From a virus (Duplodnaviria > Heunggongvirae > Uroviricota > Caudoviricetes), in IMG/VR virus record IMGVR_UViG_3300045988_151382: DNA of 48,925 bases. One strand, 5' to 3'. The translations under genes were made by a program, and so were the position numbers. Positions 1 through 48,925 of the stretch are shown one piece after another. Each line of letters starts with the position of its first letter. Position 1 is the first letter of the stretch. The notes under the pieces are model-generated. The model was not told the DNA's origin, made no database searches, and worked only from the letters and a program-made list of their open reading frames with translations.

Positions 1-836
1 AAAGCTGATTTATCCTGGATATCTGCACCGTTCTGATTTTTCGCCAGACGTGAATTTGCGTTGTCATTTGCTGCCTTGACCGCTTTTGGCGTTGCCGCCT
101 GCGTTTCAGACGTACTGTTAGTGGCACTACTGAGCTGAACTATCCCTTTTTGTGCCGTGGTGGCATTCTGGGCGGTATATTTTCCGTCAGCCAGGTCATA
201 TGCAGCCTTAACAGCCTTAGGCGTCGCTGCGAGCTTTTCAGACGTGCTATTGGTGGCATTACTGAGTTGAACAATGCCTTTTGATGTTAAAGTTGCATCA
301 GGATGATTACGTGATTGCTCATGTTTTACAATAGCTTGCTTAAGCCGCTTTGCTGAAACAGCCAGGGAATCATCTGTACCTGCATCAATTTCTTGTTCAT
401 TAGCAAATCTTGCTACTCCAACAACAGTTTCGGTTGCGGGAGGGTTAATAAACTCAACATCACCAAATGTAATGTTTTTAGTATCAAGATTTTTAATTGC
501 TATATCACTTGATATTAAAGCAATTGTAGAAGATGCTTTATTTATTATTACTTGTTCTTGCGAGTATACAGCAAACAATGTTCCTTTATTTGTATACAAA
601 CCTATTGTATGGACAACATACTCATCTTTACTATCATCCTTCGCAGTTACATGAATGGTATCAGGAGAAACGACTTTGCCTCCTATTGTGGTAAGTCGCT
701 TTATTTCATCTGTTATTTTTGTTTGTGTGGTTGATGTGGCATAATATCTACTACCTAAACCAACAGAAACGATCTCAACTTTATTTGTTCCAGTCTTGTT
801 GGCATTAACCAGCGCCTTACGCCCGGCGTCAGTCAT
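1..836 (-). CDS. Tail fiber protein, N-terminal portion; ORF starts at ATG 836 and continues across the circular junction into 46847..48836
   Basis: Hand translation from ATG at 836 gives MTDAGRKALVNANKTG... with two diverged copies of the tail-fiber repeat GIVQLS-ATNSTSE-AATPKAVKAA; no stop before position 1; frame matches the ORF ending at 46847. Confidence 0.75.
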   Translation of the reverse strand, partial: MTDAGRKALVNANKTGTNKVEIVSVGLGSRYYATSTTQTKITDEIKRLTTIGGKVVSPDTIHVTAKDDSKDEYVVHTIGLYTNKGTLFAVYSQEQVIINKASSTIALISSDIAIKNLDTKNITFGDVEFINPPATETVVGVARFANEQEIDAGTDDSLAVSAKRLKQAIVKHEQSRNHPDATLTSKGIVQLSNATNSTSEKLAATPKAVKAAYDLADGKYTAQNATTAQKGIVQLSSATNSTSETQAATPKAVKAANDNANSRLAKNQNGADIQDKSA

Positions 837-3986: not shown

Positions 3987-4988
3987 TTAATACCCATTAA
4001 TTACTCTTCGGACATCAATCGAGGTGGTATAACCACTAGTCCCAATTGAATGCACAGCTTTCGATATAAGATATTTTCCAGAAAATGAACCGAATCCCTC
4101 CAGATTTATAGTTACACCAGCTACCAATCTGGTGTCTCCAACCAATACTAAAGATCCGGTATTTTGATATCTATTTTTAAGCCGCAAAGCAGCCTTTGCC
4201 TTACGTTTTGCTTCATCTAAATTAGCTACCAGTTTTCTTATCTTAAGATTCGACCCTTCTTCTACGGATGGATCTACCCAAGTATACGAAAGCGACTTTC
4301 TTTTTTTAGGTACGCGATATTTGCACGTGCAACTTTTATACAAATCTGTAGATTGTGTGCTAAAGCTATATCTGATTATCTCATCAATACCTAACGTAAG
4401 CGTAGCGATAGGATCTTTTTGCTCAAACATCTCTTGAGCAAATATTATTAATTGGCTATCAGTGACCTTTAACGACAACCCTTCATCCTGGCAAAGTCGA
4501 TGGAGAAATTTTAAATCGCTTTCCTCCATTTGATCTTCACGCGCATAATATGGATTACTATCACCATCAATAAGAAACAACAGTTCAAGGTTAGCTAATT
4601 TAGCTATAGAAGTTGCTATATCTTTAAGAGTTGTTTTTTCCCATGCATTACTTTTTAAATCACGTCTAATGCCTGATGAAACAGGAACAGAAACAGCAGT
4701 TACCTCAACCACAGAAGGTGGTCCAGAGCAAGTTATGCCATCTACCTGGAATTTCCCGCACTCAAGGACGATTTGATTTATAGGCTTAAAGCTCAAATCA
4801 ATAAAATCACCCTTTTTAGGTGTCCAGTCTCCAGACCATTTCCCATCATCATTTTTTAATATAATAGAAATATCATCGACCTGACCATCTTCATTATCTG
4901 TATAAGACATTGACAAAACATCAGGTGACATATGAGCGGTAATATTTACATTCTGATATATAACATCAAAAAGCGTTTTACGTAACAC
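3987..4988 (-). CDS. Tail protein D-like (late control D family)
   Basis: 333 aa ORF directly downstream of tape measure and X-like gene, as in P2 T-U/X-D order. Confidence 0.55.
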   Translation of the reverse strand: MLRKTLFDVIYQNVNITAHMSPDVLSMSYTDNEDGQVDDISIILKNDDGKWSGDWTPKKGDFIDLSFKPINQIVLECGKFQVDGITCSGPPSVVEVTAVSVPVSSGIRRDLKSNAWEKTTLKDIATSIAKLANLELLFLIDGDSNPYYAREDQMEESDLKFLHRLCQDEGLSLKVTDSQLIIFAQEMFEQKDPIATLTLGIDEIIRYSFSTQSTDLYKSCTCKYRVPKKRKSLSYTWVDPSVEEGSNLKIRKLVANLDEAKRKAKAALRLKNRYQNTGSLVLVGDTRLVAGVTINLEGFGSFSGKYLISKAVHSIGTSGYTTSIDVRRVINGY

Positions 4989-5196
4989 TATTGCGTCTCC
5001 ACGGAGGAAAATTGTTTACTGATATTGGCATAACCGGAGCATCAGGAACTTTAAGAATAATCCCCGCAGAAAAAAGCACCGTAAAGCGGTGCTCAGTATT
5101 AGCATCAATAAGAAGATAAGACAGGTACTCATTACCATACAACTTTAAAGCGATACTATCCCATGAGTCCCCTTGAACCGTTCTATAATCATCCAA
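4978..5196 (-). CDS. Tail protein X-like with LysM-like motif
   Basis: 72 aa ORF, motif DSWDSIALKLYG resembles LysM; located just after tape measure gene. Confidence 0.5.
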   Translation of the reverse strand: MDDYRTVQGDSWDSIALKLYGNEYLSYLLIDANTEHRFTVLFSAGIILKVPDAPVMPISVNNFPPWRRNSVT

Positions 5197-24175: not shown

Positions 24176-24441
24176 TCATCATCTCCTGCCGCACATACAA
24201 CCTCACAAAAAACATCAGCGGAATGTTTCTTTTTGAATGAATGGCGCTCAAAACCGCACTCAATATCAGGCGCAAAAACATCCACCACATACGGTCTTTC
24301 AGAATGTTTGTTTTCCCAACGATAAACCGTAGTGACGTTGAAATGTTTTAACGCTTCACGGTACTCAACGCTGCCCGTCAGGTTTTTTGAGGTCAGGTAT
24401 TGCAGGAGGTTTTTTACTACTTCACGGTCTTGTACTTTCAT
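24172..24441 (-). CDS. Hypothetical protein, first gene after promoter cassette copy 1
   Basis: 89 aa ORF; ATG preceded by GGAG within conserved leader. Confidence 0.45.
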   Translation of the reverse strand: MKVQDREVVKNLLQYLTSKNLTGSVEYREALKHFNVTTVYRWENKHSERPYVVDVFAPDIECGFERHSFKKKHSADVFCEVVCAAGDDE

Positions 24442-24553
24442 CGGGTTATCTCCGGTTTAACCAGGGCGGGTATCGCTCGGTTTCGGGTATAACCATAGGA
24501 AATTTTTTCCCACCTGTAAAGCACTTTTTATATAAATATATAATTATATAATT
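24442..24553 (-). promoter_or_regulatory. Conserved promoter-plus-leader cassette, copy 1
   Basis: In gene orientation: AT-rich motif, TTTACA, 17-nt spacer, TATGGT, then a conserved ~50-nt leader ending GGAGATAACCCGATG; near-identical copies at 32944..33060 and 41984..42096. Confidence 0.55.
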
Positions 24554-25141
24554 CTATGCCACTTGCCAGAGAGCATCATGCAACTGGATACCTCCATTGC
24601 ACTGGTTGCCCCAGCCATGCCAACCATCAGGTAAATCACCGCGAGCAAACAGCTCAATACGAGGAACATCACCTAACAGCCTTACCAGCTTGTCACGAAC
24701 CACATCAGGCTTCCGAGAATGCTCCAGACGAGGCGATGTAAACGACTGAATGATCCCCGCATCAAGGCGGGTCGGCAATTTGCCTTTTACCGCAAACAAG
24801 CAATCTTCACTGTTTGCACGAGTCATATGCCCCATCCCCATCACCAGCTTATCTGGTTGTCGGCTACCACATTTGTTCCATGTGAAGCCCTTCATGGTCA
24901 TAAGCCTGAATCCCCATGCTTTCACCACCAGCAACGCTTCTTCTGGCTGAGTCGGAACCCACCACATGGCCAACAAACACGATTCAGGATTAGCAAGCTG
25001 CCAGACAGGAATACGAGCAATATCCTCAGCTTTCATCGTTGGATACTTAAAACCAGCTCCACGATTCCCATCCTTACACTTATCTTTGTATTCCCAGGGG
25101 GGATCTGCATAAATCAGATTAAACAATGCAATTGCCTCCAT
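24554..25141 (-). CDS. MT-A70 family DNA N6-adenine methyltransferase
   Basis: 195 aa; N-terminal YADPPWEY motif (DPPW catalytic motif of the MT-A70 family). Confidence 0.7.
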   Translation of the reverse strand: MEAIALFNLIYADPPWEYKDKCKDGNRGAGFKYPTMKAEDIARIPVWQLANPESCLLAMWWVPTQPEEALLVVKAWGFRLMTMKGFTWNKCGSRQPDKLVMGMGHMTRANSEDCLFAVKGKLPTRLDAGIIQSFTSPRLEHSRKPDVVRDKLVRLLGDVPRIELFARGDLPDGWHGWGNQCNGGIQLHDALWQVA

Positions 25142-25525: not shown

Positions 25526-25663
25526 ATATTTGATCTGTTTGTCTGGTGTGGCGCCGCGCACGAAAATCCCAGCCAATAAATTCAGGATTTTTGGGCGCGG
25601 CGGCATATCAGACAAACATGGTTGATGCGTGCGCCCATGAGAAAAGCGCATAGAATGTTGTAA

Positions 25664-32943: not shown

Positions 32944-33060
32944 TTTATTCATCAGATTTCTCCGGTTTAACCAGGGCGGGTATCGCTCGGTTTTGGGTAT
33001 AACCTTAGGAAATTTTTTCCCACCTGTAAAGCACTTTTTATATAAATCTATAATTATATA
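32944..33060 (-). promoter_or_regulatory. Conserved promoter-plus-leader cassette, copy 2 (immediately downstream of Q-like gene)
   Basis: Same architecture and about 90 percent identity to copies at 24442..24553 and 41984..42096. Confidence 0.55.
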
Positions 33061-33122
33061 TTTATAGATTTTCCGATATTCCCGGTGCCTACAAATCACC
33101 AAAACAGCTCAAAATGACACTT

Positions 33123-41602: not shown

Positions 41603-41983
41603 TTACTTAACGAGGAATAAAAATGGTTTATTGTTCGGCGGTGTAATCGGAGCTGGCTCGCTTTTGCTCATGCGATCAGTGTACCAGGCCAGCTCCTTGT
41701 CAAAGTAAGCCTGATTAAAATAGGCAATGAATGTAGTTTCAAATCCATAACGACCGCTAATACGCAGCATCTGATTGCCGTTCTCTGTTTCCAGGTATAC
41801 CTGGGCACGTTCCTGATTCTCCTTCAGCCAGGTTAAAGCCTCATCGCACGAGGACACACGATACTCATCATCGTAGCCGTCATCGATGCGGCTTGAAGAA
41901 GAACGGCAAATCACGCCAACAGAACCAGCCAGGATAGTTTGAATTTTAAGGAAAGCGTTTTTGCGGATTTTAATCATGCTCAT
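41603..41983 (-). CDS. Hypothetical protein, first gene after promoter cassette copy 3
   Basis: 126 aa ORF. Confidence 0.4.
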   Translation of the reverse strand: MSMIKIRKNAFLKIQTILAGSVGVICRSSSSRIDDGYDDEYRVSSCDEALTWLKENQERAQVYLETENGNQMLRISGRYGFETTFIAYFNQAYFDKELAWYTDRMSKSEPAPITPPNNKPFLFLVK

Positions 41984-42096
41984 CGGGTTATCTCCGGTTT
42001 AACCAGGGCGGGTATCGCTCGGTTTCGGGCATAACACTAGGAAATATTTTCCCACCTGTAAAGCGCTTTTTATATAAATCTATAATTATATAATTC
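41984..42096 (-). promoter_or_regulatory. Conserved promoter-plus-leader cassette, copy 3
   Basis: Same architecture as the copies at 24442..24553 and 32944..33060. Confidence 0.55.
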
Positions 42097-42104
42097 CATG
42101 AGCA

Positions 42105-42146: not shown

Positions 42147-42446
42147 TCAGATGTTAAACGCTATTCGTTTTCCTGTGGGAAGCTCAACATCCAGGCTTAA
42201 TTTGCCTCCCATAGCTTCAACGTAACGCTTTAATGTCGCCAGCTTTAAATCATTTCCGCGCTGCTCCAGCTTTGTTACTGCTGGCTGGCTTATACCCATC
42301 GCCTCAGCAACCTGCTTTTGTGATAACTGGAGTTCTTCACGCATCATCTGCAAGCCGACCTCAAGAATCATCTCATCTGCCATTTCTTTAATTCGCGCCT
42401 GGCTTTCCGGTGAACGGCTGGCAATCACCTCATCTAATGTTCTCAT
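42147..42446 (-). CDS. HigA-like XRE-family antitoxin
   Basis: 99 aa; HTH LSQKQVAEAMGISQPAVTKLE; directly downstream of toxin-like gene with ATG/stop overlap. Confidence 0.6.
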   Translation of the reverse strand: MRTLDEVIASRSPESQARIKEMADEMILEVGLQMMREELQLSQKQVAEAMGISQPAVTKLEQRGNDLKLATLKRYVEAMGGKLSLDVELPTGKRIAFNI

Positions 42447-42799
42447 TACTTGCTCTCCAGTGTGTTCAGATGTGCTGCAAACTCATCCTCAGCTATACGC
42501 ACCAGTTTTTTATAAAACCGCTTATCGTTACTTTTGTCTCCTGCACAAAGAACGATAGCCCGGCGAATCGGATCGAACGCATAAAAGGCTCTTATCGGAC
42601 GGCCAGAAAACTGAACGCGAAGCTCTTTCATATTTTTGTACCGAGAACCTTTTACGGTATCGGCATATGGCCTGGGTAACTCAGGTCCGTAAACCTGTAG
42701 CTTTTTCAAATCAGCCAAAACCTTTTCCTGAAGAGCGTCTTCTTGCTCATTTAGCCAGTCGTCAAATCGCTGGCTAAAAAGTACCGTCCACATGCTCAA
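42446..42799 (-). CDS. HigB-like (RelE-fold) toxin
   Basis: 117 aa; toxin-first arrangement characteristic of HigBA modules. Confidence 0.5.
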   Translation of the reverse strand: MSMWTVLFSQRFDDWLNEQEDALQEKVLADLKKLQVYGPELPRPYADTVKGSRYKNMKELRVQFSGRPIRAFYAFDPIRRAIVLCAGDKSNDKRFYKKLVRIAEDEFAAHLNTLESK

Positions 42800-43037: not shown

Positions 43038-43328
43038 CTATTTTTGTGACTTTACTCCTGGCATATGGACTTCCCAGCGACGAATCCCCATAGCTGCGCA
43101 AAAATCAGCCACATAATTCAATCCCGCCCATTCGCGGATACCACCACGGGCTTTTTCAATGAAAACGGCAATCCCTTTTTTATTGAGAGCAAAAAGCCGC
43201 CAGCTTTTTGTCACTTCGTCCTGGGTAGCCACAACACAAGTGAAAGCTCCCATGCGATACAGGTCCAAGAACTCTTTGCGTGTTTTGCGTACAAGTTCCA
43301 TAACAAGCCTCATATTTGCATGTTTCAA
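43038..43328 (-). CDS. Hypothetical protein
   Basis: 96 aa ORF, coupled to upstream gene. Confidence 0.35.
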   Translation of the reverse strand: MKHANMRLVMELVRKTRKEFLDLYRMGAFTCVVATQDEVTKSWRLFALNKKGIAVFIEKARGGIREWAGLNYVADFCAAMGIRRWEVHMPGVKSQK

Positions 43329-43624
43329 ACATCTGTTTTGTTATCAATGAAGATTAACCCTAACCCAGCGAAGTAACACAGCAGCGCCCAGGCTGCATAC
43401 GGAATGCTGGATCTGGATGTGGACTCCTTTAACATCTGCCAGTTGCGAACATTGCGACTATCTTTTAAGCCTAGTTTTTTGGCCAACTGCGAGCCGCTCA
43501 TTCCGGTCAGGCCAATGACTGCCCGAACTTCTCCACATGTAGGAGATTCCCATTCATCCGCTTTTTTTAAACAAGCCGGATTCAACATTTTTAAAACAGT
43601 ATCTTTATCCATAACCATCTCCAT
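43325..43624 (-). CDS. Putative HTH protein with C-terminal transmembrane helix
   Basis: 99 aa; HTH-like GMSGSQLAKKLG and hydrophobic AAWALLCYFAGLGLIF. Confidence 0.4.
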   Translation of the reverse strand: MEMVMDKDTVLKMLNPACLKKADEWESPTCGEVRAVIGLTGMSGSQLAKKLGLKDSRNVRNWQMLKESTSRSSIPYAAWALLCYFAGLGLIFIDNKTDV

Positions 43625-43979
43625 TTATTATATCTACGATGGTAGGAAATCTTTTCCTATGTGGCAATAGAAATTTACTACATTGCGTATAAGACAAGTT
43701 TTCTATGTCTAATAGAAAATGATGTTTCTTACGTTTTGTCGCGTTCTGATTGCTACTGTGTGCGTATTTATCGACGTTTATTGATAAGGTCCGTCCCTTC
43801 CTCCTGCAAAGCCCGGCCGTAGGCCTTATTTCGGCCTTATATAAATTGATTTTGTATAGTTCGAAACGTGCCGTTTCGAAAAGGATGATCAGGCTGCTCC
43901 ATGCCTCCGGCAAGTGCCGGAGGAGGTATATTTGAGCGTAGCGACTCGAACCGGCGCGAGCTTTAGCTCGCTGCAAGGG

Positions 43980-44255
43980 CGAACATATTCACAGGCAAAG
44001 CCTGCGTAAGTTAAATAAAGAAAGTCTTAATAAAAGAAAGTGATTTTGCATTTATTTGTTTAGTGCATCTATTATAAAAAACCATTTGCATATACATATC
44101 AAAACTGTGGATAACTTTATTAGCCGATGCCTGTAAAGGCGATATTTTTGCTGTGTCCAGGTTTAGAGAAAATTAATTTAGACTATTTTTTGAACAGATA
44201 TTTTATTGCGACGTAGATAATCCTCCGGTAAAACCGGATTCATCATTCAGGTGGG
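43980..44255. other. Candidate plasmid replication origin region with consensus DnaA box
   Basis: AT-rich region immediately downstream of repA; TGTGGATAA (reverse complement TTATCCACA) at about 44106..44114. Confidence 0.5.
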
Positions 44256-45104
44256 TTAATGTTGGAGTGATTTCCAGGTCTTTCTTAGCCTGTTATAACG
44301 CTGCTCAACGAGGGATCGTAAATATGCAAGGTCAGCACCTGGATACATGCCATCAGCAAATTCCTGGCTAACCTCTCTAGTGATTTGATGACGAAGTTCG
44401 GCCTCTCCCTTTTCCCGGACAAGACGCGCAGCTCTCTCCGCTGCTTTCTGTTTTGCCTTTATCTCTCTGGCCGTCTTCCTCTGGCGCCATACATTCTCCA
44501 TCTGCTCCTGAATAACAATACGCTTATAATCAGCCTCCGTTATCGCTTTTTTAAGCCGTTCGCTATTCTTCGCATTGAAGTAATTAAGTTTCTGGCTAAC
44601 CGCACGTCTCCATGCTTGTTCAGTAATACCAACGGTTTCCAGCAGTTGATCACGAATCTCTATTTTCGCTGGCCAATACTGTTTATTCACCCGATCCCAG
44701 CGACGTTCATAATCAATAAAACCTAACGCTTTCAGTTGCGACAACGCCCTTGTACAGCGCGTTATAGACTTGTTCCCAGCTTCGGATACGGTAGACAGGC
44801 CGCAAAAATCAGCCAACGCCTCAGCACTAGCCAGAACCCGCTTAGAAATGATGTTTACATGGTGCAAAATCGCAGCGATCACAGCATTAATCGCCCGACG
44901 ACGATGCTCGTTTATCCGGCGCTTCCGCCCTGACGGTTGATTAACGTAGAACGCAACCTCACACGTAAGATCACGACCATTAATGCGCTGTAAAGCATCA
45001 GATAACACCAGCGGCAGCTTGTGCGTATGGTGCTTTGGAGGCTGGAACTCCGGCGACAAATTACAAACGTAAGCGGAACGTAGAGACGGCATTGGTCTAT
45101 CCAT
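44256..45104 (-). CDS. repA: Replication initiator RepA, IncFII RepA1-like
   Basis: Segment CGLSTVSEAGNKSITRCTRALSQLKALGFIDYE resembles recalled IncFII RepA1 block; start uncertain (ORF open to 45236, internal ATG at 45104). Confidence 0.65.
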   Translation of the reverse strand: MDRPMPSLRSAYVCNLSPEFQPPKHHTHKLPLVLSDALQRINGRDLTCEVAFYVNQPSGRKRRINEHRRRAINAVIAAILHHVNIISKRVLASAEALADFCGLSTVSEAGNKSITRCTRALSQLKALGFIDYERRWDRVNKQYWPAKIEIRDQLLETVGITEQAWRRAVSQKLNYFNAKNSERLKKAITEADYKRIVIQEQMENVWRQRKTAREIKAKQKAAERAARLVREKGEAELRHQITREVSQEFADGMYPGADLAYLRSLVEQRYNRLRKTWKSLQH

Positions 45105-45136
45105 ATGTTCGCTCTTGCGTCCACGGAAAACCAACG

Positions 45137-45229
45137 TATAATGGGAGTTGTCGAGGCGCCCATGGATTGTTGTTGTTGGTTTTCCGTGGATGTCGCAAGA
45201 AGCCCGCAGATTTATCTGCGGGCTTTTTG
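45137..45229 (+). ncRNA. CopA-like antisense RNA candidate opposite the repA leader
   Basis: TTGCGT-N16-TATAAT promoter, 15-bp inverted repeat CCACGGAAAACCAAC/GTTGGTTTTCCGTGG, then terminator GCCCGCAGA-TTTA-TCTGCGGGC-TTTTT. Confidence 0.5.
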
Positions 45230-45702
45230 TTTCCATATCTGGTCAGTTTCCAACCAGACACCCACAATCATAACCACGTTACGTGGTTTTAAGAGAACTC
45301 TACCACAACACTTTCGGTCATGCACGAAGTCTCTCACTGATCGAACGATAATCCACCAGTAAAAGGATCTAAATTGGATCTCGTTTTGCGAGCATCATAC
45401 TACTGGCCTAACTCCAGTCAATGATTCCCAGCCAGAAACCTGCGGTAAACTCATCGTTCAGCAATATGCTGTCCGGCTTCAAAGATAAGGTGACATCATC
45501 CCTTAACAGCGCGGCCAGTTCAGTTAAAGGGCTGTTCTGATTTAATGCTGGCCACTCATACCTGGTAATAAGTGGTCAGTCTTAACACTCACCATTTGAT
45601 TGCACCCGTGTTGACGATTTGTTACTGGATATCAGACACGCTGGATAGCCAGTAGAAACATACCATTAAAATTATTACAATAATTGGTCACATGATTATC
45701 TT

Positions 45703-46266
45703 ATGCTGAATAATAAAGATATGAATATTAATGAACTTAAAGACTGTATTCACTATGAAGTAATCGGTAGCGAGCGTCCTTTCTCCTGGCGAAAGGCAAT
45801 TGTTCGCGCAATAAAACATAGAAGGGTTCGTTATTTATTTTGGTGGCGCATAGCCAAATACCTTTTTGATAAAGGCGGATACTGTCGGAAGATTGCGGGA
45901 AAAATAGAACGTTTCATTCTTGATAAATATAATGTAACAGTCCCTTTAACTGTAAATATAGGGAAAGGCTTTGATATTTCTTATCTCAACAGTGTTGTTA
46001 TCGGTCACAAAGTAACAATCGGTGAAAATTGTTCAATTAAGCCCGGAGTAACTATTGGACTTCGCGGGGAATTTAATGATATGGATATTGTTATAGGGCA
46101 TAATGTGACCATTGGTTGTAATGCCACCATTCTTGGTGGCAAAGTGCGTATAGGAAACAATGTCACAATAGGTGCTCATGCATTGGTATTGCATGATATT
46201 CCTGATGATTCAACATTCATCACTAAATTTCAGTCTGAAGTTATCTGCTCGTCCTCCCGAACATAA
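45703..46266 (+). CDS. Hexapeptide-repeat (left-handed beta-helix) acyltransferase
   Basis: 187 aa; tandem hexapeptide repeats [21 protein letters not shown]...[34 protein letters not shown]; AT-rich codon usage. Confidence 0.7.
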
Positions 46267-46847
46267 CCCTGATTCATCAGCTCTGGCCATACGATATCCG
46301 GAGCTGTACTGGTGTCAATTCTACTCACTAATACTCTGTATTTTCTCCAGGAATCCAGTTGTGAATTTTCCTCGTTTGTTGCTATTTCAAGATTAACTGC
46401 ATCCTGCAGAATTGCGATGTTATCTGTTGCTTCCTGGATCAACCTTGCCTTTTTCTCTTCCGCTTCCCGTATCCGAAACAGTTTTTCTGCTTCCTCATCA
46501 TTCACCCAGGATACGCCGTCCCACTTCTGATACTCCCCTGCTGGCGACAACCAGGTGACATTCTCTGGTAGCGGTCCGAGTTCAGAAATAAACAATGCGT
46601 CCCCCGACGCCACGTCATAGACCGTTTTACCACGATGGTCTTCAACAATATTCCACGATTCATTTTCACTGTTAAAAACTGCCACAAAGCCAGCAGGAAT
46701 TTCCGGTGGGGCGATATCTGTAGAATTAGCTGGCAGCCCTGTATGAGGTGGAATATATGCGTCACCTTCACCAATAAACTCATTAGTTCCGGCCAGCAGG
46801 TTATAAATTTTTACGGTACGTGATTGTTCACTCATTCTGAATGCCAT
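46230..46847 (-). CDS. Tail fiber assembly protein (Tfa)
   Basis: 205 aa; C-terminal [15 protein letters not shown]...WPE motif matches recalled Tfa consensus; immediately downstream of tail fiber gene. Confidence 0.8.
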
Positions 46848-48836: not shown

Positions 48837-48925
48837 AAAGCTGATTTATCCTGGATATCTGCACCGTTCTGATTTTTCGCCAGACGTGAATTTGCGTTGT
48901 CATTTGCTGCCTTGACCGCTTTTGG
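48837..48925. repeat. Terminal overlap: exact copy of window positions 1..89
   Basis: 89 identical bases at both window ends, coding frame preserved across the join. Confidence 0.85.

Follow-up and report, generated by a model that had tools for sequence, protein, structure and literature searches.

The locus at positions 43,980 to 45,702 raises the question of which kind of replicon keeps a phage genome as a plasmid, and what holds its replication in check. An IncFII-type replicon with a CopA-like antisense RNA inside a phage genome was the original prediction. The window (the whole stretch of DNA that was analysed, 48,925 nt) was compared with relatives of the replicon in phages and plasmids, and we consider it probable that the locus is an antisense-RNA-controlled plasmid replicon of the IncFII/L-M family, by which a temperate myovirus maintains itself as a circular plasmid. 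The replicon is only distantly related to IncFII, and its predicted antisense RNA, which is unlike the known CopA RNA, appears to throttle replication.

Carrier of the replicon

The window holds a complete, circular phage-plasmid of the myovirus type, 48.8 kb in size. Over nearly its full length it shares 98% identity with Yersinia phage vB_YpM_44, a phage isolated on Yersinia pestis, and about 70 plasmids of E. coli, among them the 48.5-kb one of ATCC 25922, are also 98% identical to it. The identity to an isolated phage, together with a full set of myovirus structural and lysis genes, bears out that the molecule is a phage genome. Annotated in the phage family are terminase, portal, capsid, tail, holin, ParA, RepA and a toxin-antitoxin pair; no integrase and no replication initiator other than RepA was found among these annotations.

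The replicon was present in 71 of 5,426 complete E. coli genomes (about 1.3%). All of its 82 sites in those genomes were on plasmids of about 47-50 kb, with none on chromosomes and none integrated, so the location of the replicon is exclusively extrachromosomal. Virion and lysis genes, plasmid replication and partition functions and an extrachromosomal location are found together here, as is expected of a phage-plasmid. MOB-suite typing in PLSDB assigned no replicon type to the family, and no description of the replicon was found in the literature within reach of our search, which left most subscription journals outside. One ATCC 25922 assembly has a 94-kb record, which is a head-to-tail dimer of the same plasmid. 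We rejected its reading as a pair of co-resident replicons, as it is a dimeric assembly of one plasmid.

Since no other initiator is annotated in the phage family, RepA and its origin may also drive lytic replication. It could even be argued that they serve mainly or only the replication of lytic phage DNA and not plasmid maintenance, as the lytic cycle may also need RepA and a head-to-tail dimer occurs in one assembly. However, the plasmid location of all 82 occurrences, the ParA and toxin-antitoxin genes beside the replicon without an annotated integrase, and the predicted tight negative control by a countertranscript described below, which is a copy-number device, make this very improbable. 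The lytic and plasmid roles of RepA are not mutually exclusive.

RepA family and start site

44256-45236, minus strand: long repA ORF of 326 codons, which contains a further in-frame ATG at 45104
44256-45104, minus strand: probable true extent of repA, 282 aa from ATG 45104
ATG at 45092, minus strand: alternative RepA start giving 278 aa, which matches the start conserved in relatives
45105-45236, minus strand: 44-codon extension, in RefSeq part of the 326-aa RepA, most likely untranslated leader
45112-45116, minus strand: Shine-Dalgarno-like AAGAG, 7 nt upstream of ATG 45104

The expected resemblance of RepA to IncFII RepA holds at the level of the superfamily. RepA scored 149 bits with Pfam model PF02387 (cut-off 22.9; 2e-43; residues 53-319 of the long ORF) and 233 bits with NCBIfam model NF040977, RepA_IncFII_LM (cut-off 70), and PHROG 7060 spans its residues 10-282. 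In the narrow sense the name "IncFII-type" does not fit, because RepA failed the incFII equivalog model TIGR03474 with 78 bits against a cut-off of 446.9, and its identity to the canonical IncFII RepA was 41% over 97 residues only, in the same register (E 3e-20), or about 32% over 45% of the protein with tblastn. By these scores RepA is a distant member of the broad IncFII/IncL-M initiator family. A scan of one-genome-per-species contigs for RepA relatives gave a spurious Streptomyces match only, and no solved structure was found for the family.

Two starts of repA had been considered, 45104 and 45236, and the 44 codons between them had been taken as a possible leader peptide region. The choice narrows to 45104 or 45092, and 45236 is dropped. 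The 44-codon extension is most likely non-coding: its frame relative to repA differs among relatives that are 80-85% identical, near-identical variants have 9-, 11- and 12-nt versions of a loop inside it, with indels that are not multiples of three, and no Shine-Dalgarno sequence could be read in the leader before ATG 45236. The 326-aa RepA annotation of RefSeq appears to be over-extended into a regulatory leader.

RepA relatives are called at 277-284 aa and begin at residue 49 of the window protein (long-ORF numbering). A conserved ATG with an upstream AAGRG precedes this conserved RepA start by 12-17 nt, and every window-like leader keeps AAGAG or AAGGG at a fixed distance from that ATG. In the window and in relative L019 the upstream ATG shares the frame of repA, so the window appears to have no separate leader peptide. 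In relatives L012, L016 and L011 it is out of frame and opens ORFs of 13 or 46 codons. Short ORFs overlap the repA start in some relatives.

Probable origin downstream of repA

44224-44238, minus strand: conserved hairpin TCCGG-TTTTA-CCGGA, directly after the repA stop
44106-44114, minus strand: DnaA box TGTGGATAA (also given as TTATCCACA), in the same orientation as repA
44000-44105: A+T-rich origin core, 25-33% G+C, with conserved blocks containing ATGCA
44011-44025 and 44027-44041: two 15-nt direct repeats in the origin core
43860-44005: cluster of G+C-rich hairpins, with inverted repeats at 43860-43880, 43904-43923, 43955-43972 and 43989-44005

The consensus DnaA box reported downstream of repA, near 44106, was confirmed as a perfect box at a conserved position in an oriR-like origin. 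It is the sole perfect box in the 48.9-kb window; one perfect 9-mer is about the chance expectation for this length, and the information lies in its position. The box is 142 nt past the repA stop in the window, and 12 of 13 scanned relatives have a box, perfect or with one mismatch, 122-143 nt past their own stop; L022 went unscored because its anchor was out of frame. The corresponding distance in canonical IncFII is 175 nt. The position is kept in relatives down to 59% RepA identity, and the flanking blocks are conserved too.

Every relative, and the canonical IncFII locus L026 too, has the hairpin after the stop, with compensatory variants (CCGG/CCGG to CCAG/CTGG). By its position it corresponds to the CIS/terminator element of IncFII- and IncB-type replicons, whose function it may share. 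The G+C-rich hairpins are conserved too and show compensatory changes such as GCGAGCTAAAGCTCGC versus GCGGCGTAAACGCCGC, and this cluster is possibly a priming signal or a boundary of the origin. Copies of the invariant GGAGTTGTCGAGG were sought as a possible origin protein-binding site, and no extra ones beyond chance were found. The layout of the origin is clearly conserved in the sequences compared, and the roles given to its single elements are presumptive.

Predicted antisense RNA opposite the repA leader

45115-45142, plus strand: proposed antisense promoter, TTGCGT at 45115-45120, 16-nt spacer, TATAAT at 45137-45142
about 45150-45232, plus strand: predicted antisense RNA of about 80 nt
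45155-45194, plus strand: antisense stem-loop 1, pairing 45155-45158 with 45191-45194 and 45160-45166 with 45183-45189
45167-45182, plus strand: apical loop of stem-loop 1, 16 nt
45195-45232, plus strand: antisense stem-loop 2, an intrinsic terminator with core 45200-45210/45215-45225 and a U-tract from 45226

The plus-strand promoter is present as described before. Its -10 is perfect and its -35 has only 3 of 6 consensus matches, which is why the consensus scanner did not list it. TTGCGT-16-TATAAT is invariant in the window-like leaders (group 1), and a diverged group 2 of leaders has TTGCAT-18-TATAAT in the same place. The terminator that had been placed on the plus strand was recovered as well, as a G+C-rich stem (45200-45210/45215-45225) followed by TTTTTGTTT. 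On the minus-strand side the stem runs into CUUCUUGCG, so there is no terminator in that direction, and by its sequence the element would work only in the plus direction. The ORF list shows no plus-strand gene upstream of it. Two groups whose leaders are otherwise different in sequence thus keep a perfect -10 with a terminator about 85 nt away from it.

The ends of the RNA were placed from the -10 for the 5' end and from the terminator for the 3' end. The fold of 45149-45236 on the plus strand had a minimum free energy of -41.1 kcal/mol and a z-score of -5.6 against shuffles, and the wider plus-strand fold of 45115-45236 a z-score of -9.5. The fold with two stem-loops is common to 7 variants. 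RNAalifold gave 11 pairs for stem-loop 1, two of them with compensatory changes, and in the terminator stem an A-U pair is replaced by G-C in L012 and L016; about five independent lineages stand behind the covariation counts of group 1. Across groups 1 and 2 the terminator has three compensatory pairs, where the cross-group counts exclude stem-loop 1 as only the 5' end and the terminator of the RNAs align with MAFFT. A covariance model of group 1 matched the group-2 RNAs over their full length with about 30 bits (E about 1e-5), in every case antisense to repA, and had no match in the IncFII locus L026 or in IncB-like controls. Five marine metagenome matches to a 20-nt motif were rejected as unrelated coding sequence.

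Conservation and covariation of the RNA element are evident in these alignments, and from them we infer that the RNA is produced and where it ends. These comparisons strongly suggest that the repA leader has a countertranscript of about 80 nt. The original prediction of such an RNA at about 45137-45229 stands by comparison, with the limits moved to about 45150-45232, but the 15-bp hairpin which had been counted as part of it does not belong to it.

The same hairpins might act purely in cis, in mRNA stability, translation efficiency or protein binding, with a silent plus-strand promoter and no trans-acting RNA. The weak -35 would agree with this, and so would the sense leader itself, which is extremely structured (z-score of the minus-strand fold -7.6 against shuffles); also, compensatory changes within an inverted repeat support structure in an RNA of either strand, and covariation alone cannot separate the two. 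But the U-G pairs of stem-loop 1 would be A-C mismatches when read on the sense strand, the perfect TATAAT is in the same place in two groups of otherwise different sequence, and the terminator works in the plus direction only, where there is no upstream gene to terminate. In addition, antisense control is, to our knowledge, the rule in the IncFII/L-M initiator family. We therefore regard a purely cis-acting leader as unlikely.

A ribosome-mediated attenuator on the plus strand, with a Cys-rich leader peptide, was also considered. The Rfam model Thr_leader hit the plus strand at 45119-45232 with 31 bits, and a plus-strand ORF from 45105 reads through TGT TGT TGT TGG. However, this score is far under the gathering cut-off of 55, and the downstream plus-strand gene is not conserved, being a transferase here and an invertase on the opposite strand in phages and ATCC 25922. 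The attenuator is disfavoured above all because near-identical copies differ by 1- and 3-nt indels in just this tract, which disrupts any frame, and we find it hardly credible.

Relation to CopA and copB

The countertranscript reading then raises the question whether the RNA is CopA itself. The Rfam models CopA (RF00042), PK-repZ (RF01087) and PK-repBA (RF01089) gave no match at E<=10 in 45040-45440. As positive control, the canonical IncFII locus L026 scored 92 bits with CopA, and relative L018, with 62% RepA identity, scored 49.3 bits with PK-repBA against a cut-off of 45. "CopA-like" as a statement of homology has to be given up on these scores; as far as family models can tell, the antisense RNA is not a CopA homologue, and the lack of CopA similarity predicts compatibility with R1/R100. 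No ORF of at least 60 aa that could be copB was found on the repA strand in 45237-45700, which holds only ORFs of 41 and 56 codons overlapping the leader. In relatives the neighbour of the replicon is an invertase or a tail-fibre gene.

An orthodox IncFII circuit as in R1/R100, in which a CopA homologue binds CopT and blocks a tap-like leader peptide coupled to repA, is disfavoured and in our view quite improbable. It shares with the window the protein superfamily, the order of repA and then origin with a DnaA box, and a countertranscript similar in size with two stem-loops, and in some relatives short ORFs overlap the repA start as the circuit would have it. Against it are the Rfam searches, empty here but not in L026 and L018, the score of RepA far under the incFII equivalog cut-off, the lack of a copB-sized ORF upstream, a reading frame through the target that is not conserved, and an RNA that ends about 45 nt before the start codon.

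Leader hairpin and possible refolding

45114-45199, minus strand: long leader hairpin, lower stem 45199-45194/45119-45114
45189-45175/45135-45121, minus strand: upper 15-bp stem of the leader hairpin, with arms of 15 nt
39-nt loop of the leader hairpin, minus strand: holds a mini-hairpin, 45163-45159/45145-45141
45090-45136, minus strand: alternative hairpin of the freed 3' arm and the start region, putative "off" state
45394-45421, minus strand: candidate repA promoter P1, TTGACT, 16 nt, TATGAT
45297-45305, minus strand: candidate second sense promoter P2, extended -10, TGGTAGAGT

P1 is the best promoter match in the region (10/12). Its -10 block is conserved in the window-like relatives, and its -35 is absent in L012. 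Both leader groups share a TGnTAGAGTTC block at P2, and we name P2 as a sense promoter with low confidence.

The inverted repeat of the 15-bp hairpin exists (45121-45135/45175-45189), but its left arm is the exact spacer of the proposed antisense promoter. As this arm lies upstream of the antisense start at about 45150, the hairpin cannot belong to the antisense RNA and is assigned to the sense repA leader. There 98.4% of cells were paired, against 31-45% with the partners slid, and the upper stem has three compensatory pairs.

The antisense RNA stops about 45 nt short of the start codon, upstream of the ribosome-binding site. As the RNA and this site do not overlap, inhibition would need an indirect step, which is predicted from folding energies. 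When the stretch covered by the antisense RNA was held unpaired, the alternative hairpin was predicted in 5 of 5 group-1 variants. It buries AUG 45104 and ends at AUG 45092. Taken alone it has -19.7 kcal/mol and a z-score of -3.4, with none of 200 shuffles as good, and z-scores of -2.4 to -4.5 in relatives. An analogous hairpin predicted in group 2 touches the Shine-Dalgarno sequence of the leader ORF, with one weak variant (z-score -1.05). When about 120 nt of coding sequence were added to the blocked leader, the freed arm of the window was predicted to pair elsewhere, with sequence that relatives do not share. For this reason we relied on the local hairpin, which recurs in all variants. A pseudoknot of IncB/IncI style, in which the leader loop (GGGCGCC) would pair with the start region, was dropped, because relatives do not keep the candidate pairings (AUCCAU/AUGGAU, and CGACAA and AACUCC with a site inside repA).

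These folds would fit the following scheme. RepA would most likely be made from a long, highly structured leader and act on the origin just downstream of its own gene, and a constitutive countertranscript of about 80 nt with two stem-loops, the second being the terminator, would most likely determine copy number. The variable apical loop of antisense stem-loop 1 would meet its exposed complement in the large loop of the leader hairpin, and pairing would extend across the hairpin's 5' arm. The 3' arm, now free, would then fold onto a degenerate copy of the 5' arm which overlaps the repA start (AUG 45104 and 45092), and translation of RepA would be switched off. The refolding step taken by itself, which comes from the modelled folds, we hold to be possible, at somewhat less than even chance.

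Hypervariable loop

45166-45180, either strand: hypervariable spot, formed by the loop of antisense stem-loop 1 and, on the sense side, by the 5' portion of the large hairpin loop

In a comparison of 13 distinct 275-nt leaders that are nearly identical, the loop collects 13 variable or indel columns, against nine isolated variable columns in the rest of the leader. Natural loop variants include AACAACTAA, AACAATTAA and AACAACAATAT. We propose that the loop is the specificity (incompatibility) determinant. It is an (AAC)n-like tract, so slippage and not selection could explain part of its variability.

Taken jointly, a control-RNA family that was not described before, a translational refolding switch, "replication-immunity" types defined by the loop and a possible lytic use of RepA and the origin make up a reading that we offer as tentative and, in all its parts together, rather doubtful. 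If it were true, the hypervariable loop would create many mutually compatible "replication-immunity" types among near-identical phage-plasmids, a counterpart in plasmid prophages of the immunity regions of integrated prophages. On induction, transcription reading through from phage genes upstream would overwhelm the antisense RNA.

Phage-plasmids can transfer genes in two ways, as a virus and as a plasmid. In a survey of them most were not Inc-typable, and those that could be typed were mostly IncFIB. The replicon family described here is also present in the quality-control strain ATCC 25922, with a control region identical to that of the window. With its natural series of loop variants, a defined control RNA would give direct access to incompatibility and co-residence, a means of curing or tracking these elements, and a tractable case of strict plasmid copy control against lytic amplification in a phage. 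The apparent over-extension of the 326-aa RepA into the leader would be corrected in RefSeq.

Comparison with known replicons

IncFII replicons (R1/R100/NR1) consist of copB, copA/CopT, tap, repA, CIS and oriR, and the countertranscript of R1, about 80-90 nt against the repA leader, has two stem-loops, the last being the terminator. The window resembles them in its initiator, which is of a homologous superfamily and keeps the conserved core in register, in the order of repA, hairpin, DnaA box and A+T-rich origin, and in its predicted RNA of about 80 nt, also with two stem-loops and a terminal terminator. It differs in that it has no CopA homologue, no evident copB and apparently no separate tap-like peptide, and its RepA fails the incFII model. 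Its RNA stays short of the ribosome-binding site, the proposed contact is made through stem-loop 1 and not the terminator stem-loop, and its carrier is a phage and not a conjugative plasmid.

IncB, IncI-alpha, IncK and IncL/M replicons use RNAI or Inc RNA, a leader peptide (RepB or RepY) and an activating pseudoknot. The window is like them in that its RepA fits the NCBIfam model joining IncFII and L/M initiators and it has no evident copB. The nearest plasmid-borne relative, L018 (62% RepA identity, in a T4SS context), passes PK-repBA, and in the group-2 phage relatives the stop of the leader ORF overlaps the repA ATG. Unlike them, the window has no PK-repBA or PK-repZ match and no convincing conserved pseudoknot partner, and the leader ORF is lost or vestigial in its group.

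Antisense RNAs that refold their target, without masking the ribosome-binding site, are known from pT181/pIP501 (attenuation), ColE1 (RNAI/RNAII) and ColE2, where RNAI lies upstream of the rep start. The modelled switch would resemble these, as upstream binding is proposed to change between two mutually exclusive hairpins, but the output here would be occlusion of the start codon and not termination or primer maturation, and there is no relationship in sequence or family.

P1/P7, with an iteron-controlled RepA (IncY), and SSU5/pHCM2, of RepFIB type, are also temperate phages kept as low-copy plasmids, in which partition and addiction genes accompany the replicon. Their initiators bind iterons, whereas the replicon of the window belongs to the IncFII/L-M family and is predicted to be controlled by an antisense RNA.

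Phage-plasmid carrier

The same 89 bases stand at both ends of the window (1-89 and 48837-48925), therefore the genome is circular, 48,836 bp long, and its assembly ran on past the join. With Yersinia phage vB_YpM_44 it is collinear at about 98% identity (host as deposited, Y. pestis EV76-CN), and the 2.1 kb around the replicon matched 71 PLSDB plasmids of about 47-50 kb each, nearly all from E. coli and typed as non-mobilizable. E. coli ATCC 25922 contributes one of them, a plasmid of 48,488 bp whose replicon is 98.5% identical and whose control region is identical. Its RefSeq annotation includes virion and lysis genes (terminase, portal, ClpP-like protease, capsid, contractile tail, baseplate, holins and endolysin), tail fibres with an invertase, and maintenance genes (a ParA protein, a RelE/ParE-type toxin with antitoxin, and RepA), and contains neither an integrase nor a replication initiator other than RepA. 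The replicon was present in 71 of 5,426 complete E. coli genomes, at 82 places, all 82 on plasmids and none on a chromosome, therefore the carrier is a phage-plasmid. The original prediction of a replicon inside a phage genome is thus borne out by the likeness to vB_YpM_44, the phage gene set and the plasmid-only occurrence, and phage-plasmid is the more exact term.

Similarity of the window to the Yersinia phages and the ATCC 25922 plasmid stops at 45449. In those elements repA has a Hin-type invertase gene of its own strand as immediate upstream neighbour; in its place (45450-46266) the window carries a hexapeptide-repeat transferase gene on the strand opposite to repA.

A second ATCC 25922 assembly (NZ_CP032086.1, 94,204 bp) contains the 48-kb element twice, as a linear dimer joined head to tail, and the annotation of the tail-fibre region differs between its two copies. 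Judged from this annotation, an invertible segment may have flipped between them. The dimer may fit concatemers or plasmid dimers together with an active invertase, or alternatively an assembly artefact.

Several other elements were observed in the window. A Gp49/HigB-type toxin (117 aa) and an HTH antitoxin (99 aa) are encoded at 42147-42799 on the minus strand, 1.5 kb from the origin, and form with two small conserved proteins (43038-43612) a maintenance neighbourhood which is kept in relatives. A 121-nt repeat occurs in three copies with 88-94% identity (24438-24558, 32948-33068 and 41980-42100), each with a TTATATAAATATATAATTATATAAT-like A+T-rich motif at its end. This motif has eight intergenic occurrences in the window, with further sites at 25651, 31808, 36785 and 36858, and repeat and motif may be promoter or operator sites of a phage regulatory circuit. 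At 46306-46500 (minus strand), inside the tail-fibre assembly gene, the Rfam sRNA IS009 matched below threshold (70 bits, gathering 117), probably because this Rfam family is itself homologous to tail-fibre assembly sequence of prophages.

RepA and its start

RepA matched Pfam IncFII_repA (2e-43) and NCBIfam RepA_IncFII_LM (233 bits, cut-off 70), but gave only 78 bits with the narrow incFII_RepA equivalog (cut-off 447). The predicted resemblance to IncFII RepA1 therefore holds for the superfamily and not for the narrow family. The alignment to canonical IncFII RepA spans residues 68-164 in each protein, with 41% identity (E 3e-20), and tblastn against plasmids returned thousands of canonical IncFII genes with about 32% identity over 45% of the length. 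Nearer relatives fall into two identity bands, 80-86% and 57-62%. Seven of these loci lie on contigs of about 20-60 kb: at six of them repA neighbours phage tail-fibre or baseplate genes, and at the other an invertase gene; one 62% relative, L018, adjoins type IV secretion genes. Because of the model scores, the identities of the relatives and the phage gene neighbours, we regard RepA as forming a branch of its own, mostly phage-associated, within the IncFII/L-M initiator superfamily. PHROGs lists the family as phrog_7060, 'unknown function', and the Yersinia phage records annotate the ORF as 'hypothetical protein'.

44256-45236, minus strand: repA ORF, 326 codons, with an in-frame ATG at 45104

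Which of 45104 and 45236 is the start had been left ambiguous, and the 44-codon extension between them had been suggested to be a leader peptide region. In relatives 80-85% identical the frame of this extension relative to repA is not the same, a tract inside it has 9, 11 or 12 nt among near-identical copies of the window's leader, and ATG 45236 has no ribosome-binding site, so the extension is most likely non-coding and 45236 drops out. RepA calls in relatives (274-284 aa) begin at the equivalent of window residue 49, which is ATG 45092, and the Pfam and PHROG matches start just past that position. An ATG preceded by AAGAG or AAGGG is kept at the equivalent of 45104; in the window and the relative L019 this ATG shares the repA frame, and in three other relatives (L012, L016 and L011) it opens an overlapping 13- or 46-codon ORF. 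These comparisons place the start at 45104 (282 aa) or at 45092 (278 aa). The RefSeq 326-aa call from ATG 45236 (WP_224158527.1, WP_228465520.1) appears over-extended, and the comparisons indicate that its first 44-48 codons are regulatory leader.

Two side observations concern relatives. In those with about 59% RepA identity, a leader ORF begins some 30 nt past the target hairpin, and its ATATGA end overlaps the repA ATG:

L017, 5516-6004: leader ORF, 162 aa
L020, 4516-5004: leader ORF, 162 aa
L021, about 4890-5002: leader ORF, only 33 aa

The 162-aa ORF has a weak PF02387 match, which suggests a duplicated N-terminal part of RepA. In L019 (about 844-1822) the leader and first 20 or so RepA codons are like those of the window's group and the RepA body is like that of the diverged group (62% overall). 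It suggests recombination just inside repA, so that control module and initiator body were swapped separately.

Predicted antisense RNA and leader hairpin

Public viral and metagenome contigs were searched with the invariant 20-mer of the leader, the stretch upstream of the repA start, which gave 33 distinct leaders; five were unrelated marine coding sequence. The leaders form two groups with almost no other shared sequence, group 1 being window-like and group 2 accompanying RepAs of about 59% identity.

45115-45142, plus strand: proposed antisense promoter, TTGCGT-16-TATAAT
45121-45135 and 45175-45189: 15-nt inverted arms
45200-45225, plus strand: G+C-rich stem, then T-run (terminator)
45421-45394, minus strand: sense promoter candidate P1, TTGACT-16-TATGAT, best consensus match; -35 missing in L012
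45305-45297, minus strand: TGnTAGAGT block, common to groups 1 and 2

Promoter, arms and terminator all lie where they had been predicted, and folds of the region were far more stable than shuffled sequence. On the strand opposite to repA, groups 1 and 2 share four parts in identical order:

Part 1: TTGC-type -35 and perfect TATAAT, spacer 16 nt (group 1) or 18 nt (group 2)
Part 2: conserved 5' end GUCGAGGC
Part 3: first stem-loop
Part 4: strong terminator, 80-88 nt from the start

RNAalifold with seven group-1 variants recovered the terminator and stem-loop 1; the fold includes three compensatory pairs, and U-G pairs whose sense-strand counterparts would be A-C mismatches. Between the groups, the terminator shows three compensatory pairs. 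A covariance model built from group 1 matched every group-2 RNA at full length (about 30 bits, E about 1e-5), each match being antisense to repA, and did not match the IncFII and IncB-like control loci. The T-run follows the stem in the plus direction only, and the window has no plus-strand gene upstream that the terminator could serve. An antisense RNA of about 80 nt to the repA leader is thus a well-supported prediction.

The 15-bp hairpin had been assigned to this RNA, which does not hold: its left arm is exactly the -35/-10 spacer of the proposed promoter, and a transcript starting near 45150 includes only the right arm. Therefore the hairpin is a structure of the sense repA leader, formed between a 5' arm at 45199-45175 and a 3' arm at 45135-45114, and the repA start region follows immediately 3'. 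Across variants 98.4% of positions were paired, versus 31-45% with partners slid, and the upper stem has three compensatory pairs.

P1, the TGnTAGAGT block or both may drive repA. Just downstream of P1 are two GATCC motifs about 14 nt apart (45361-45378, minus strand), a pair kept at the equivalent place in most relatives, group 2 included; it may serve as a repressor operator or as a site sensitive to Dam or SeqA. Immediately upstream of the stretch complementary to the antisense RNA stands a small hairpin, GUCUGGUUG-GAAAC-UGACCAGAU (45240-45262, minus strand), in which near-identical leader copies keep the stem and vary in the loop (45245, 45246, 45250).

Thirteen distinct window-type leader copies (275 nt) are otherwise nearly identical, with 13 variable or indel columns clustered at 45166-45180 versus nine isolated variable columns elsewhere. 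This stretch forms the predicted apical loop of stem-loop 1 in the antisense RNA and, on the sense strand, the single-stranded 5' part of the leader hairpin's large loop. Such variation would be expected for a kissing-loop specificity determinant diversifying to escape incompatibility. The tract is (AAC)n-like, so slippage contributes to its variability.

Proposed repression by refolding

The predicted antisense RNA would base-pair with the terminator complement, with the 5' arm and with half of the loop, which leaves about 45 nt between its end and the start codon. When the covered stretch was made unavailable, the freed 3' arm was predicted to fold onto the start region, a degenerate copy of the 5' arm, in every group-1 variant. 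This alternative hairpin buries AUG 45104 and abuts AUG 45092 (window -19.7 kcal/mol, z -3.4; relatives, z -2.4 to -4.5). An analogous hairpin was predicted in group 2, reaching the Shine-Dalgarno of the leader ORF whose stop overlaps the repA ATG. Because of these hairpins in both groups we propose, from energy models, that RepA is repressed by leader refolding: the antisense RNA would occupy the 5' arm and part of the loop, and the released 3' arm would pair with the start region and bury AUG 45104. The window's prediction changes with longer downstream sequence in the fold, and the hairpin is weak in one group-2 variant.

Probable origin region

44106-44114, repA orientation: DnaA box TGTGGATAA, the sole perfect one in the window
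44224-44238, directly after the repA stop: conserved hairpin, with compensatory variants (CCGG/CCGG to CCAG/CTGG), also in the IncFII control
Origin core: ATGCA-containing blocks and a stretch of 25-33% G+C, conserved
43860-44005: G+C-rich hairpin cluster, conserved, with compensatory changes

The DnaA box predicted downstream of repA is present and conserved in position: in 12 of 13 relatives scanned (the other, L022, was not scorable) a perfect or one-mismatch box lies 122-143 nt past the repA stop in repA orientation, and in the canonical IncFII plasmid 175 nt past it. By position, these elements would correspond to CIS, oriR and a priming site in replicons of the R1/IncB type.

Comparison with known replicons

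The antisense RNA had been called CopA-like. An Rfam search of the window at E<=10 gave no CopA, PK-repZ or PK-repBA match, while the same search found CopA with 92 bits in the canonical IncFII locus, which has annotated copB and tap, and PK-repBA over its threshold in the IncB-like L018. No copB-sized ORF stands ahead of the leader in the window. CopA-like is therefore not upheld, and the control module was diverged or replaced, with initiator and origin layout kept.

In the MOB-suite typing that PLSDB displays, these plasmids are without a replicon type. A phage-plasmid survey reports that Inc typing failed for most phage-plasmids and that IncFIB made up most of those typed. We found no description of this replicon in a literature search whose coverage excluded most subscription journals. 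Its main interest is the distinct control RNA, the natural loop series and the presence in the standard laboratory strain ATCC 25922. The replicon differs from IncFII proper in lacking the equivalog RepA, CopA and copB which define it, and from IncB/IncI in lacking their pseudoknot leader, but it is like the IncFII/IncB/IncL-M family in predicted antisense control, initiator superfamily and origin layout.
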